From a virus, in the IMG/VR virus record IMGVR_UViG_3300016457_001358, positions 1-63,208 of that record: a DNA stretch of 63,208 nt; one strand, written 5' to 3'. The stretch's first letter is position 1. Every line of letters begins with the position of its first letter. A model generated the notes under the pieces. It did no database searches, was not told where the DNA came from, and worked only from the letters and a program-made list of their open reading frames with translations. The position numbers and the translations under genes are program-made. Of this stretch, positions 41,670 to 44,985 are shown piece after piece.

Positions 41670-42119
41670 ATGAAAGTCAAGCTCAAACTGTTCAACGGAG
41701 CGCCTGTGATTGAGATTCAGTATGAAGGTCAGGAGTGGGAAGCGATTGAAAGCAAGCTCAAGGATCTTGGACTCAAAAAGGCGGAGACGGTTCAGGGTCT
41801 CGGAATGAACCTGCAGTTCAACTATTACAGGACCACGAACGAGGCTCTCAAGAGGTATTTGGAGGATGAGTTGAAGTACAACCAGTGCTACGACGACATC
41901 AACAAGCCCTTGCTCATGGGGTCTTATTTTAACGCGTCGGTGTTCAGGATCGTGCCAAAGAACGGAAAGGTTTCCATCAAGCTCGAAAAGTACATTTCAG
42001 TTAACGATTTGAAGCTCATAGTCAACAACATAAAAGCGGTGTACCGAGCGTTCTTTTCGTTGATCACCGAGGCGGATGTGTCCATCAAGGTCAAGGAAAA
42101 GGAAATTGAAATAAAATGA
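41670..42119 (+). CDS. hypothetical protein upstream of ligase module
   Basis: 149 aa ORF. Confidence 0.4.
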   Translation: MKVKLKLFNGAPVIEIQYEGQEWEAIESKLKDLGLKKAETVQGLGMNLQFNYYRTTNEALKRYLEDELKYNQCYDDINKPLLMGSYFNASVFRIVPKNGKVSIKLEKYISVNDLKLIVNNIKAVYRAFFSLITEADVSIKVKEKEIEIK

Positions 42120-42131
42120 AGGTGCTTTTCC

Positions 42132-42839
42132 ATGATTTCCAAGCATATCGTCTCCCTTGGCGTCGAGGCCGAGGGAGGGATAAACGAGGATGGCCTAAAG
42201 GAAGTGATCAAGGGTCTGGAGAAAAAGGGGCTGAGACACCTGTTCGAGATTCACTACGACGGGAGCGTTTACGTTTCCGACATGGATTACTCCGACAGGG
42301 AGTTCAACTTTCACAGCTCGGAGCTGAAGGACATCAGGTTTTTTTTGAAACTGCTGTTCGGCGCCGGGTTTAAAGCAAATTCAACGTGCGGATTTCACAT
42401 TCACGCTAGGATGGTCAATGATTTGCCCAAACTGTTTTCCTACAAACACTTCTACGAGAAGTTCTTGGACCTATACAGGTCCAGGTACAGGTTTAACCAA
42501 AAGTATTTGAGAAGGCTGCACAACTCATACTGCTACGCCGATTACGATGAATACAAGATTTACAGGCAGCTGGCGTCGAGAAAGAAATGCAGTGAGAGAT
42601 ACACCGCGATTAATTTGAACTCGCTCAATCTTCACGGCACGCTCGAGTTCAGGATATTTCCTCGCCAGGAAAGTTTGTTGGAGGCGATGTCGACCATCAG
42701 GTTCGTCATCAACGCGGTTGAAAAGTTGGCGTCGCCTACCAGTTGCAGTTTGAGGGAATTTTCATTCACGCTCAATGCTCCCGACGTGCAGTATCCGAGG
42801 GAGCATGTTATCGAGGTGCTGAAAGTATGTGCAGATTAG
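42132..42839 (+). CDS. glutamine-synthetase-like carboxylate-amine ligase (amidoligase)
   Basis: SLGVEAEG (E-x-E), CGFHIHARM (H-x-H), GTLEFRIFP (E-x-R) in the order seen in GCS2/YbdK-type enzymes. Confidence 0.55.
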   Translation: MISKHIVSLGVEAEGGINEDGLKEVIKGLEKKGLRHLFEIHYDGSVYVSDMDYSDREFNFHSSELKDIRFFLKLLFGAGFKANSTCGFHIHARMVNDLPKLFSYKHFYEKFLDLYRSRYRFNQKYLRRLHNSYCYADYDEYKIYRQLASRKKCSERYTAINLNSLNLHGTLEFRIFPRQESLLEAMSTIRFVINAVEKLASPTSCSLREFSFTLNAPDVQYPREHVIEVLKVCAD

Positions 42840-43852
42840 GGTTTGTTTCGACCGGAGCGAAGCAGGATTTGACCAAAATCGTCACTTTGGCGACGATGTA
42901 TTACTCGCATTACAATGACAACGGAACCGGTTACGCCTACGAGGACGACAAAAGGGGCGGTGCGGCGATCGTGAAGTCCGGCCTCGAAGCCAAGGACTTC
43001 TGGCTGACCAACAACTCCCGCATCGTCTCAAGGACCTGCATATTCCACGTGAGGAAAGCGACCAACGGGGGCGTGAGCAACGCCAACGCCCACCCGCACG
43101 CGTGCGGTCGGGTTGCGGCGGTTCACAACGGCGTCATCAGCGGCTACGAGAGCCTCAAGACCGAGCTCGAAAACAAGGGGCACAAGTTTTCGTCGGAAAC
43201 GGACAGCGAGGTGTTCGCTCACGCCTACGTCGAGTACGGGCTCCGCTTCGTCGAGAAGATGGCGAAAAGCGGAGTGACCGGTTCGGCGACCGTCCTGTTG
43301 CTTGACGGAGACAAAATAATTTTATACACCAACAACAACACGATTGCCGTGTACGAGCTCGGGTCCGGGTTGATGGGCTTCTCGGACTCGTCCTTTTTCA
43401 GCAACGACAGAGAAGTGCCGATAAAAGACGATGTGATTTACGTGATTTCCAGGGGACGGATAATTAAATCCGTTTCAACGAAAGGCATACCGGAAACCCG
43501 GTTTGGCCGTTCGTGGTGCGACGACGGAATGTGCAGGAAGCAGAGTTCGACCTGGATCGAAAGGGCTATCAGCAACGCGTTTGCCGTTCCGTACGCGGAC
43601 GTGCTCGTCACCAGCAACCGCAAGCACATTAAAATAGAAATAAACGGCAGTGCGGAGGATCTGCGGAGGGTGATGTCCAAGCTCGGCGGCGCTCTGACCG
43701 CGGACGGTCTGGTGATATACGGCAAAAAGAGCAGGATCAAGAGGAAGGCGTTCAGAGCCGGGTTAATGGAAGTCGGCAAAGCCATAGCGGCGTCTGCGCG
43801 GGATCGCTGCGCGTACAGTTATGACGACACTCGCTACGGTTGGGTAATATGA
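42827..43852 (+). CDS. class-II (Ntn) glutamine amidotransferase domain protein
   Basis: Met-Cys N-terminus; RKATNGGVSNANAHPH..VHNGVISGYESLKTELENKGHKFSSETDSEVFAH aligns to GlmS/PurF GAT core. Confidence 0.7.
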   Translation: MCRLGFVSTGAKQDLTKIVTLATMYYSHYNDNGTGYAYEDDKRGGAAIVKSGLEAKDFWLTNNSRIVSRTCIFHVRKATNGGVSNANAHPHACGRVAAVHNGVISGYESLKTELENKGHKFSSETDSEVFAHAYVEYGLRFVEKMAKSGVTGSATVLLLDGDKIILYTNNNTIAVYELGSGLMGFSDSSFFSNDREVPIKDDVIYVISRGRIIKSVSTKGIPETRFGRSWCDDGMCRKQSSTWIERAISNAFAVPYADVLVTSNRKHIKIEINGSAEDLRRVMSKLGGALTADGLVIYGKKSRIKRKAFRAGLMEVGKAIAASARDRCAYSYDDTRYGWVI

Positions 43853-44562
43853 TTGTGAAAAGCTGCCCGTTGCTCGAGGACACGCGGGCGAGGATCGAGG
43901 CGCTGAACTTCGACTTGCCGGACATCGTGTTGAACCTCGGGGACTCCAGGCTGAACGAATCCGTTTTCGGTTCCAGGGTCATTTTAAACCGCCGAAAGGC
44001 GGTGAAAAGGTGCCTCAACAAGAAAAAAATGTTCAGAATCTTCAAGGCGAACGCCATACCGAGCCCCGAGTATTTCGATTTGAGCAAAAAATCGGATGTC
44101 CTCAGAGCAGCGGGTTACTGCATAATGAAAAGGGAAATCGTGCTGAGGCGGGGAAGGGATATCAGGATAGCGGGCTCGGTTCGCGACTTTCTCCGCCGCT
44201 ATCGCGACTACGATTACGCGACGCTGAAAATAAACAAACTGGCCGAGTGGAGGGTCATAGTGTTCCGCGACAAAATAGTCAAGGTCAGCATAAAGAGAGG
44301 GAGCTGTTTTGCTCTCAAAAACGCCAACGCTCGCTTCGAGCCGGTGTACCACTTCAGCAAGGACGCGATGAAGCTGTGCAAGCGGGTTGCGAGAATATTC
44401 GGGATAGACCTTTGCGGAATCGATATATGCTACGATAAGGATGCCGAGGACTTCAAAATCATAGAGATAAACTCGGCGCCCGGAATGAACCGGGATTCGG
44501 TCAAAATCTTTTTGAATTATTTGAGGCAAACCGATTTTAAGGCAAGAGAGCGGAATGTTTGA
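43840..44562 (+). CDS. ATP-grasp family ligase (RimK-like)
   Basis: C-terminal IIEINSAPGMN motif; size and layout of small ATP-grasp ligases. Confidence 0.6.
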   Translation: MGNMIVKSCPLLEDTRARIEALNFDLPDIVLNLGDSRLNESVFGSRVILNRRKAVKRCLNKKKMFRIFKANAIPSPEYFDLSKKSDVLRAAGYCIMKREIVLRRGRDIRIAGSVRDFLRRYRDYDYATLKINKLAEWRVIVFRDKIVKVSIKRGSCFALKNANARFEPVYHFSKDAMKLCKRVARIFGIDLCGIDICYDKDAEDFKIIEINSAPGMNRDSVKIFLNYLRQTDFKARERNV

Positions 44563-44625
44563 GCTCCGCGATCAACGCGTCCCGATGAAGCGGGGGCGCA
44601 TTCGTTCCGCTCTGCCATTTTAAAG

Positions 44626-44985
44626 GTGCTTTGTATGAAGCTCAAGGAAACAGAAAGGGGCGAAGCAAAGTTGTTTGACCCCGAAATTTTCGGATTCTCC
44701 GAGTTCGCAAGCGGCGAGCTGAACGAACTGCAAAACGAGAAAATCAAGCAATTGAAATGGAAAAAGATTGTTTTATATAATGTGAATAAAAACGAAGTCA
44801 AGGAGTGGGAGGGAGAAACGCTGCTCAATTTCTCATGGGACTTTGCGTTGAAGGCGAGAAACGGGAAAATCGCGGAACTCATGGAAAAGTTGCAAACCGC
44901 TCCGCTCGGGGAGATATATGACATCATAGATGATATTTTTGATATCGCCGAGAAAGCCGGGGCAGTATTTTTTTATTGGAGTTAG
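44626..44985 (+). CDS. hypothetical protein downstream of ligase module
   Basis: 119 aa ORF. Confidence 0.35.
   Translation: MLCMKLKETERGEAKLFDPEIFGFSEFASGELNELQNEKIKQLKWKKIVLYNVNKNEVKEWEGETLLNFSWDFALKARNGKIAELMEKLQTAPLGEIYDIIDDIFDIAEKAGAVFFYWS

Follow-up and report, generated by a model that had tools for sequence, protein, structure and literature searches.

A candidate four-gene amidoligase cassette with an undescribed partner protein in a probably archaeal tailed virus

Background

When a virus encodes a glutamine amidotransferase (GATase) side by side with two predicted ligases, the question is whether these genes make up one functional unit and, if so, what this unit would do and whether it has relatives. 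Such a locus is found in the window, that is, the whole stretch of 63,208 nucleotides analysed here; the virus that carries it is a complete 63.1-kb tailed virus, probably an archaeal one. Here we argue, with a modest leaning in favour, that positions 41670-44562 form a translationally coupled four-gene operon, in the order p149, short GS-like amidoligase, Ntn GATase and RimK-like ATP-grasp. A phage cluster of Amidoligase_2, GAT-II and ATP-grasp genes was reportedly predicted in 2009 by Iyer, Abhiman, Burroughs and Aravind (Mol Biosyst 5:1636). Among the enzyme modules of tailed phages that lack a known function it is one of the most widespread, and it is annotated in many therapeutic phages of Pseudomonas and E. 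coli. The literature searched yielded no report on the function of the amidoligase/GATase/ATP-grasp cluster and no biochemical data on any of its members, which matches the original prediction for this locus, namely that comparable trios had been predicted by comparative genomics and that their role is unknown.

Organization of the locus

All the reading frames named in the original prediction are present at the locus as described (Table 1). Both of the overlapping stop/start junctions claimed there can be read in the sequence: the GATase start codon (ATG 42827), with GAGGTG upstream of it, sits 13 nt within the amidoligase frame (stop 42837-42839), and the ATP-grasp start codon (ATG 43849) shares an ATGA overlap of 4 nt with the GATase stop codon (43850-43852). 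The TTG at 43840, originally taken as the ATP-grasp start, is a possible alternative that would give 240 aa, but the ATG creates the ATGA overlap and is the start picked by gene callers on identical contigs.

Table 1. Features of the cassette locus, in window coordinates
Feature	Position	Strand	Remarks
TATA-like element TTTAAATA	41641..41648	+	candidate promoter (weak); 22-29 nt upstream of first gene
p149, 149 aa	41670..42119	+	undescribed family, partner of amidoligase/GATase pair
Amidoligase_2 / predicted GS-like carboxylate-amine ligase, short, 235 aa	42132..42839	+	Pfam and PHROG matches, motifs
Class-II (Ntn) glutamine amidotransferase, 341 aa	42827..43852	+	GATase_6, GlmS N-terminus, Met-Cys start
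Minimal RimK-like ATP-grasp ligase, 237 aa, accessory	43849..44562	+	RimK, PHROG 2599
116-aa ORF, non-conserved neighbour	44635..44985	+	starts 72 nt downstream of ATP-grasp

The p149 gene is preceded by a gap of 210 nt, with no gaps downstream, which is consistent with an operon start at this point. Since TATA-like motifs are not enriched across the window (10 found versus 7.1 expected), the element TTTAAATA ranks as a candidate promoter only, and a weak one. The cassette is located between the genes for a T4 Rnl1-like RNA ligase and PCNA. The same gene block is found again on ~18 metagenomic contigs and also in relatives that have diverged, far beyond what chance would give.

The three enzymes

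The profile HMM searches bear out all three enzyme assignments of the original prediction, each with scores above the curated cut-offs. The amidoligase matches Pfam Amidoligase_2 (PF12224) with an E-value of 5.3e-5 and 23.6 bits, 1.6 bits above the cut-off of 22, as well as PHROG 2443 'amidoligase' (2.8e-8) and a four-sequence HMM of bacteriophage amidoligases (4.9e-6); its relatives at 35-40% identity carry recorded Amidoligase_2 matches. In an alignment of seven sequences, which took in the two bacteriophage enzymes of Bas88 and a Rhizobium phage, the residues G10, E12, E14, D43, S45, H89, H91, R128, C134, Y157, N161, E172 and R174 are invariant; the triad quoted earlier, that is, the metal/ATP motifs E12-x-E14, H89-x-H91 and E172-x-R174, is accordingly the same in the enzymes of archaeal viruses and bacteriophages. 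No relative of solved structure is detectable by sequence or profile search, and the GS-like fold is predicted from the Pfam match and the motifs.

The GATase matches GATase_6 (6.4e-16) and GATase_7 (4.2e-10) in Pfam and, among the NCBIfam models, the GlmS N-terminus (~1e-22) and EgtC (9.6e-7). Its N-terminus, MCRLGF, has the Met-Cys start that is found in its relatives too, in keeping with the Cys1 nucleophile of the GlmS/PurF glutaminase domain and of EgtC. Upon alignment to the glutaminase domain of E. coli GlmS (1xff), R76, T79, H89, N101, G102 and D126 correspond to GlmS R73, T76, H86, N98, G99 and D123 and stay unchanged in all eight sequences aligned, so that Cys2, the glutamine-binding Arg/Thr/His/Asp set and the Asn-Gly oxyanion hole are all retained, as expected from the GlmS/PurF core recognized originally. 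The channel-gating W74 of GlmS is replaced by Lys, and, unlike enzymes of the GlmS/PurF type, the protein lacks an isomerase, PRTase or synthetase domain: its glutaminase domain covers approximately residues 1-225 (42827-43501), and the 116-aa C-terminal tail, which is variable and whose conservation does not extend beyond the two nearest relatives, gave no match to a known synthase domain or family in profile searches. Because a fused synthase domain is lacking, the acceptor of the ammonia must be encoded separately. In the contexts compared, the amidoligase is the only constant enzyme neighbour of the GATase, and we infer that the two are coupled via ammonia.

The ATP-grasp protein matches Pfam RimK (PF08443; 2e-5, 24.7 bits, cut-off 21), PHROG 2599 (6.7e-23) and the NCBIfam models of MptN, RimK and cyanophycin synthetase (~1e-7), in the latter case with scores well under the equivalog cut-offs (for MptN, 30 bits versus 350). 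E133, R135, K149, D192, E206 and N208 are invariant; these make up the E-x-R, the Lys, the Mg-binding Asp and the E-x-N of the IIEINSAPG motif noticed in the original prediction, and the E-x-R, Asp and E-x-N set is common to the alpha-L-glutamate ligases of the RimK and MptN/CofF types. The best relative of solved structure, as found with the family profile, is RimK itself (5zct, 4iwx; 1e-10). However, the profile alignment begins only at RimK residue 66, and only ~55 residues precede the central domain, so that most of the N-terminal domain of RimK is missing and the protein departs from the full three-domain architecture with its N-terminal pre-ATP-grasp domain. An HMM from four phage ATP-grasps matches the window protein at 1.3e-23, and, within a range of 25-27% identity for the phage ATP-grasps, those of the phiEco32-like phage Bas88 and of RHph_N3_13 are found at E-values of 1e-16 (BLASTP, 27% identity) and 1.7e-11, respectively.

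p149 and the conserved core

The original prediction centered on the enzyme trio. The enzymes do co-occur, but the gene neighbourhoods place the boundary of the conserved unit elsewhere. In all nine independent contexts, homologues of p149 adjoin both an amidoligase and a Met-Cys GATase, whereas the ATP-grasp is found in only four of them and is replaced by a GNAT at one locus. The conserved core is p149, amidoligase and GATase, with p149 as the obligate partner of the enzyme pair and the ATP-grasp as an accessory member.

The p149 family comprises 125 clusters and has no match in Pfam or PHROG; its predicted structure, albeit confident (pLDDT 94.5), has no match in the PDB or BFVD. Only N88 and R93, in the motif N-x-A-x-F-R, are invariant, and a surface loop carries the conserved motif D75-D76-I-N78-x-P. 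What, then, would this protein do next to its enzymes? It might be their substrate, a small protein of the virus on which its neighbours act by amidation or glutamylation, in the manner of the LysW-type carriers or of S6 modified by RimK, to become an effector or a virion component. We consider this unlikely. The strict adjacency to the enzymes would fit, as would the conserved loop followed by the invariant N88 and R93, the location of the p149-type module of one relative in a head-assembly cluster, with the portal gene on one side and the prohead protease/MCP genes on the other, and the small proteins with a common tail in a Rhizobium phage (see below), a hint that proteins may serve as substrates in the family at large. 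Nevertheless, no Asp, Glu or Lys is invariant (D75 is conserved in 87% of the members and D76 in 71%), Asn and Arg are not substrates of ligases, the C-terminus is constant neither in length nor in sequence and has Asp or Glu as its last residue in just 33 of 119 members, in contrast to the conserved acidic terminus or invariant acceptor residue of a LysW-like carrier, and p149 is absent from bacteriophage clusters that have the same enzymes. The absence of any fully conserved acidic or Lys residue, together with the lack of a conserved terminus, argues for a structural or binding function, and p149 is likely to be an accessory or bridging subunit, a ligation substrate being the less likely option.

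Glutamine-dependent amidating complexes of separate subunits include MurT/GatD and PurL/PurQ/PurS, with PurS as the small bridging subunit. A separately encoded glutaminase, an ATP-dependent ligase and a small extra subunit would recur in the window, but by analogy only and not as membership in these systems: GatD and PurQ belong to the class-I amidotransferases and MurT resembles the Mur ligases, so that the folds differ from those of the window enzymes, and the predicted structure of p149 is similar neither to PurS nor to any other entry of the PDB. A bolder proposal, to which we would give a low probability, is that p149 founds a family with a new fold and that it assembles with the short GS-like ligase and the Ntn glutaminase into a glutamine-dependent amidoligase complex peculiar to viruses, of which it would be the obligate third subunit. 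This complex would modify a protein of the virus or the host post-translationally in archaea, by amidation or glutamylation, and would be distinct from the phiEco32/LUZ24-type cluster.

It has also been suggested in environmental studies that phage amidoligase/GATase genes are auxiliary metabolic genes, which here would raise the nitrogen or amino-acid metabolism of the host during infection through synthesis of the asparagine or glutamine type. For the window cassette this is very improbable: the proteins stand very far apart from the metabolic enzymes of cells, a search of 5.8 billion proteins returned only one or two close relatives of the amidoligase and of the ATP-grasp, the constant partner p149 is seen only on metagenomic contigs, several of them with viral genes, and the GATase lacks the synthase domains of GlmS, PurF or AsnB.

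Kinship with bacteriophage clusters

The three-enzyme system is not of a new kind; judged by its sequences, the window cassette is a reduced variant of the cluster of phiEco32-like and LUZ24-like bacteriophages. The clusters of phiEco32-like and LUZ24-like (Bruynoghevirus) phages, of Rhizobium phage RHph_N3_13 and of Citrobacter phage CVT22 encode the same three enzyme families with the same catalytic residues and, like the window cassette, are virus-encoded and lie among early/replication genes. The order amidoligase, GATase, ATP-grasp is common to the window, Bas88 and LUZ24; RHph_N3_13 and CVT22, unlike the window, have a GATase placed elsewhere in the cluster. The bacteriophage clusters are found directly upstream of primase/helicase and polymerase genes, and the Rhizobium phage cluster interleaves small proteins with a common C-terminal tail.

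The phage clusters differ from the window in having a protein of ~190-208 aa upstream of the amidoligase, longer amidoligases (268-391 aa versus 235 aa) and an HSGRG loop in the ATP-grasp, and in lacking p149. A four-phage HMM for the second ligase, COOH-NH2_lig (PF14395), gave no match in the whole window or in related loci, each translated in all six frames, nor was there a Pfam match to this type in the window scans, and an HMM for gamma-glutamyl cyclotransferase (AIG2/GGCT) found none in the window or in p149-type loci. What is new here is a variant without the second COOH-NH2 ligase and the cyclotransferase and with a short amidoligase and p149. It is the smallest version observed in this analysis, with three or four short proteins that include the strictly co-occurring p149, for whose predicted structure no match was found, and such a compact cassette lends itself to co-expression and mass spectrometry as a way to learn its substrate and chemistry.

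Pairs of amidoligase and GATase (PF12224 and PF13522) have been described under the label 'AMGs' in OM43 phages and, in 2025, in the Poseidoniales virus Vyasavirus brisbanense. These pairs, like that of the window, are virus-encoded, and one belongs to an archaeal virus, so that the original description of the module as unusual in an archaeal virus was overstated.

Possible chemistry and targets

The chemistry can be envisaged, most likely, as a glutamine-dependent, ATP-driven amidation or ligation of a target, as suggested by the retained catalytic residues. The GATase would hydrolyse free L-glutamine at Cys2 and release ammonia; the amidoligase would activate a carboxylate with ATP to an acyl-phosphate, as glutamine synthetase does; and the acyl-phosphate would be captured by the ammonia, or by an amine, to yield an amide; Amidoligase_2 enzymes could join an organic amine in place of ammonia. 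As a non-catalytic or substrate-binding subunit, p149 would couple the amidoligase and the GATase. The ATP-grasp, where present, would attach an alpha-amino acid to the same target, with glutamate as the most plausible choice, thereby creating or extending the carboxylate that is being processed.

The glutamine site itself admits another interpretation. The GlmS-equivalent Arg and Asp are predicted to bind glutamine by its free alpha-carboxylate and alpha-amino groups, and the same residues would accept a gamma-glutamyl compound, which presents this moiety too, as in EgtC-type hydrolases. The amidoligase might then join the gamma-carboxyl of glutamate to an amine, in a PuuA-like reaction, and the GATase might later hydrolyse the amide, as EgtC does, with glutamate as a transient activating or protecting group and glutamine not acting as an ammonia donor. 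Parallels are provided by PuuA/PuuD and by BtrJ/BtrG of butirosin synthesis; moreover, EgtC is among the NCBIfam matches of the GATase, and the bacteriophage versions encode a gamma-glutamyl cyclotransferase, a remover of gamma-glutamyl groups. We regard this scheme as doubtful, since the best matches of the GATase are the glutaminase domains of GlmS and PurF rather than EgtC, the window variant has no cyclotransferase, and tight translational coupling of a GATase to a ligase is usual for glutaminase/synthetase pairs.

As to the target of the ammonia-dependent amidation favoured here, a protein or peptide of the virus or the host, or a small metabolite, may be considered. A peptidoglycan-linked function for the phiEco32 cluster is said by secondary sources to go back to the 2009 prediction; the presence of the module in a probably archaeal virus speaks against a role that depends on bacterial peptidoglycan. 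An amino-acid or amide moiety could also be placed on a modified base of viral DNA or tRNA as a means of evading host nucleases. Amidoligase and glutamine-amidotransferase genes co-occur with 5-HMUDK/aGPT-Pplase thymidine-hypermodification genes in viral contigs (Lee et al. 2021, PMC8989533), and both the position of the window cassette between an RNA ligase and PCNA and that of the phage clusters next to primase/helicase and polymerase genes would be compatible with such a role. It seems quite improbable, however, because Pfam searches of 50 ORFs of the complete genome (the small ORFs in part) gave no dUMP hydroxymethylase/thymidylate-synthase homologue, 5-hmdU kinase, aGPT-Pplase, TET/JBP or DNA glycosylase-like transferase, the only genes for DNA modification that turned up encode ordinary N6/N4 and Dam methylases, and one p149-type module, as noted above, lies in a head-assembly cluster.

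Flanking genes

Three flanking proteins had originally been listed as candidate partners or substrates. One of them, p149, is conserved; the cysteine-cluster protein (41108..41458) and the product of the downstream frame have no counterpart even in a relative of 76% identity or in the distant modules. For the downstream frame, ATG 44635 is a more likely start than the GTG at 44626 proposed before. Its product has no family match in profile searches and no homologue in any diverged module, and its GC3 is 0.57, versus 0.69-0.75 in the four cassette genes. This ORF is probably co-transcribed with the cassette without being a conserved member of it; it is preceded by AAAGGTG and followed by an A/T-rich stretch with T-runs.

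The gene cassette belongs to a known class of viral gene cluster whose function remains uncharacterised, and it is a distinct variant of that class, defined by an undescribed partner protein, p149, which apparently has a new fold.

Gene layout and identity of the enzymes

The original prediction of three consecutive enzyme genes describes a real feature and was correct at the enzyme level: all of its open reading frames (ORFs) were found in place, and profile searches (Pfam, PHROG, NCBIfam) returned the same three identities. The first enzyme is an Amidoligase_2 protein (PF12224; E 5.3e-5; score 23.6 bits, cut-off 22) that also matches the PHROG family "amidoligase" (2.8e-8), the second is a class-II glutamine amidotransferase, or GATase (GATase_6, 6.4e-16; NCBIfam GlmS N-terminus, ~1e-22), and the third is a RimK-type ATP-grasp ligase (PF08443, 2e-5; PHROG 2599, 6.7e-23; NCBIfam MptN, RimK and cyanophycin synthetase, each ~1e-7). 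The amidoligase and GATase genes overlap, as proposed, by 13 nt, with GAGGTG preceding the ATG at 42827. The GATase and ATP-grasp genes overlap as well, but the TTG proposed as the start of the latter is an alternative; a start at the ATG at 43849, giving an ATGA overlap, is simplest, and this ATG was picked by gene callers on the identical contigs, which come from metagenome assemblies. GC3 of the four cassette genes is higher than in their immediate neighbors but is not unique within the genome and, therefore, was set aside as a sign of transfer.

Features of the window and of the compared loci
Feature	Locus	Position	Strand	Remark
Terminal repeat	window	1-91; 63118-63208		100% identical over 91 nt
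Duplicated segment	window	9521-9583; 55650-55712		94%
Duplicated segment	window	9975-10060; 56278-56363		93%
Duplicated segment	window	10057-10187; 56361-56491		83%
Multi-domain protein	window	27268-32253	-	1661 aa
RNA ligase	window	39700-40746	+	T4 Rnl1-type; PHROG 562, 1e-68
Cys-cluster protein	window	41108-41458
p149	window	41670-42119	+	149 aa
Amidoligase	window	42132-42839	+
GATase	window	42827-43852	+
ATP-grasp ligase	window	43849-44562	+	alternative start 43840
Downstream ORF	window	44626-44985		116 aa from the likelier start 44635
A/T-rich repeat	window	46234-46296; 51257-51319		63 nt, 84% identity
S27e homologue	window	51053-51241	+	62 aa, C4 zinc ribbon
tRNA-Met (CAT)	window	54491-54564	+	single tRNA gene
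RNA ligase	L001 (76% relative)	5925-6977
Small proteins	L011 (phage RHph_N3_13)	3170-3535; 4321-4590; 5623-5877; 6675-6932		84-121 aa
GNAT-fold gene	L018 (triad relative)	8511-8966		after GATase
Triad	L019 (triad relative)	6001-7915		head-assembly module

Catalytic residues

The amidoligase was aligned with the relative at 76% identity, with three others that are 35-40% identical to it, and with the annotated enzymes of Escherichia phage Bas88 and Rhizobium phage RHph_N3_13; the residues G10, E12, E14, D43, S45, H89, H91, R128, C134, Y157, N161, E172 and R174 are invariant. Among them are the E-x-E, H-x-H and E-x-R motifs of the original prediction, which correspond to the glutamine synthetase metal/ATP ligands E129/E131, H269/H271 and E357/R359. 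Since no solved structure related to the amidoligase was detectable by sequence or profile search, its predicted glutamine synthetase-like fold is based on the Pfam match and these motifs. The GATase starts with Met-Cys, so that the expected Cys2 is present, and its alignment to the glutaminase domain of E. coli GlmS (1xff) shows that the equivalents of R73, T76, H86, N98, G99 and D123 are retained, with Lys at the position of W74; the glutaminase-site residues are invariant across eight viral homologues. The tail of ~116 residues past this domain is conserved in the two nearest relatives only and yielded no family match in a profile search. The ATP-grasp protein keeps the catalytic set E133-x-R135, K149, D192 and E206-x-N208; the best structure matches of its family profile are RimK 5zct and 4iwx (E 1e-10), and the alignment starts at RimK residue 66, so that most of the N-terminal domain is absent.

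p149 and the conserved triad

The nearest relatives of the GATase (38-47% identity) are each encoded next to an Amidoligase_2 gene and a gene whose product, of 145-152 aa, is homologous to p149 (32-41% identity, E 1e-22 to 1e-35), and four further p149 members, with identity down to 26%, all adjoin an amidoligase and a Met-Cys GATase. Altogether, p149, a non-enzyme-like protein, is encoded beside the amidoligase and GATase in each of the nine independent contexts compared, whereas the ATP-grasp ligase is optional (four of the nine). In one relative with the triad, L018, a gene with the GNAT acetyltransferase fold takes the position of the ATP-grasp gene, which suggests that the second ligases are interchangeable. 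In another, distant one, L019, the triad has the gene for a 1244-aa portal-containing protein on one side and, on the other, those for a prohead protease and an SU10-type major capsid protein.

An exhaustive HMMER search delineated a p149 family of 125 representative clusters (84 at E<=1e-10), nearly all of them standalone proteins of 140-170 aa, and p149 had no match in Pfam, PHROG, NCBIfam or PADLOC. Conservation is centered on D75-D76-I-N78-x-P...N88-x-A-x-F-R93-x-x-P96, with N88 and R93 invariant. The apparent novelty of the fold comes from a structure model for which the alignment was built from representative-library matches; a single-sequence AF2 model (pLDDT 47) was discarded. The family alignment contains no invariant acidic residue or lysine, and the C-terminus is variable. 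It is conceivable, if rather unlikely, that p149 itself is the modified substrate, a possibility that overlaps with the mechanism favored below and does not exclude it.

Relation to the bacteriophage cluster

Homologues of the ATP-grasp protein are present in 38 GenBank phages. In the phiEco32-like Bas88 and in LUZ24, they belong to one cluster, directly upstream of a primase/helicase gene, in the order COOH-NH2 ligase, ~190-208-aa protein, amidoligase, class-II GATase, small ORFs, ATP-grasp and gamma-glutamyl cyclotransferase. In Rhizobium phage RHph_N3_13 and Citrobacter phage CVT22, these ligase, GATase and ATP-grasp families also lie upstream of primase/helicase genes, but the GATase genes are placed elsewhere in the cluster and no cyclotransferase is annotated; UFV-P2 is a further phage with a related cluster. 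HMMs built from the bacteriophage proteins match the amidoligase (4.9e-6) and the ATP-grasp protein (1.3e-23) of the window, whereas those for the COOH-NH2 ligase and the cyclotransferase found no match in the window or the related loci. Homology of p149 to the ~190-208-aa proteins was ruled out (hhalign probability 0.1%), and the p149 HMM had no match in the four bacteriophage-cluster loci (L010, L011, L016, L017). In RHph_N3_13, the genes for four small proteins alternate with those for the amidoligase, ATP-grasp and GATase. All four proteins have nearly the same C-terminal tail, ...D(P/S)xQ(T/A)GDT(E/D)EDI, and in the bacteriophage version they may act as interaction tags or as substrates that are made ribosomally.

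The cluster system was reportedly predicted by Iyer et al. 2009. In later papers that cite this work, cell-wall modification or superinfection exclusion, and also secondary-metabolite synthesis, have been proposed; no report of experimental characterisation was found in the literature searched. The PADLOC defence models had no match. An amidoligase and a GATase have been reported in a Poseidoniales virus, so that the occurrence in an archaeal virus, initially considered unusual, has a precedent.

The region 40000-47000 showed no DNA-level similarity to 50,697 GenBank phages, and the same phages contained no tblastn match to the amidoligase or to two p149 family members. A scan of viral contigs gave no confirmed relative of the GATase, and a word-indexed protein search returned only 1-2 close relatives each for the amidoligase and ATP-grasp. 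Among 28 amidoligase loci of species-representative genomes, p149 was found only on the contig with the 76% relative (QMOL01000081.1; L001/L022), which is 9.8 kb long and also encodes a terminase and an RNA ligase. It was deposited within a "Chlamydiae bacterium" MAG, almost certainly through mis-binning of viral DNA.

Possible mechanism

Judging from the sequence, the site at which the GATase would bind free glutamine is intact and the protein lacks a synthase domain, and the amidoligase, translationally coupled to the glutaminase gene, is predicted to be an ATP-dependent carboxylate-activating ligase. The simplest reading, to which we give somewhat better than even chances, is glutamine-dependent amidation: ammonia released by the glutaminase would attack an acyl-phosphate formed by the amidoligase, p149 would be a subunit that couples the enzymes or binds the substrate, and the RimK-like ligase would act on the same target, adding an amino acid that is probably glutamate. 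A rival reading, a pathway in which a gamma-glutamyl group is attached and later removed, is regarded as unlikely, and a role of the cassette in host metabolism appears very improbable. Hypermodification of nucleic acids, brought to mind by the co-occurrence of amidoligase and GATase genes in thymidine-hypermodification clusters (PMC8989533), is improbable, given that none of the defining genes was seen among 50 scanned ORFs of the complete genome.

Flanking genes, genome and host

Among the flanking genes proposed as partners, only p149 proved to be conserved; the Cys-cluster protein and the 116-aa downstream ORF, as well as a 105-aa protein, were rejected, having no homologue in any diverged module, including the 76% relative. 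The 116-aa ORF could nonetheless belong to the same transcript as the cassette. The linkage to the upstream RNA ligase is retained in the 76% relative, and L018 has an RNA ligase of a different family ~5.6 kb away.

The first and the last 91 nt coincide, which makes the window a complete viral genome of 63,117 bp, either circular or terminally redundant. Its gene products include a Mu-type portal, a large terminase and proteins of the tail and with lectin domains, along with the T4 Rnl1-like RNA ligase, PCNA, RNase HII, an N6/N4 methylase and a ParB-like protein. PCNA and the homologue of ribosomal protein S27e (PF01667 match recorded for the identical gene on contig L004) point to an archaeal host, as judged from gene content; the ANME-1 virome paper makes no reference to the cassette genes. 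The 1661-aa protein, encoded beside the portal gene, combines metallo-beta-lactamase (residues 93-268), D12/Dam N6-adenine methyltransferase (322-544) and ATP-dependent DNA ligase (1083-1271) domains and may be a "polyvalent" virion-associated protein. The duplicated segments, ~46 kb apart within 9521-10187 and 55650-56491, include the starts of small ORFs. Both copies of the A/T-rich repeat are intergenic, the first just 5' of the PCNA gene, and may represent a shared promoter or regulatory element.
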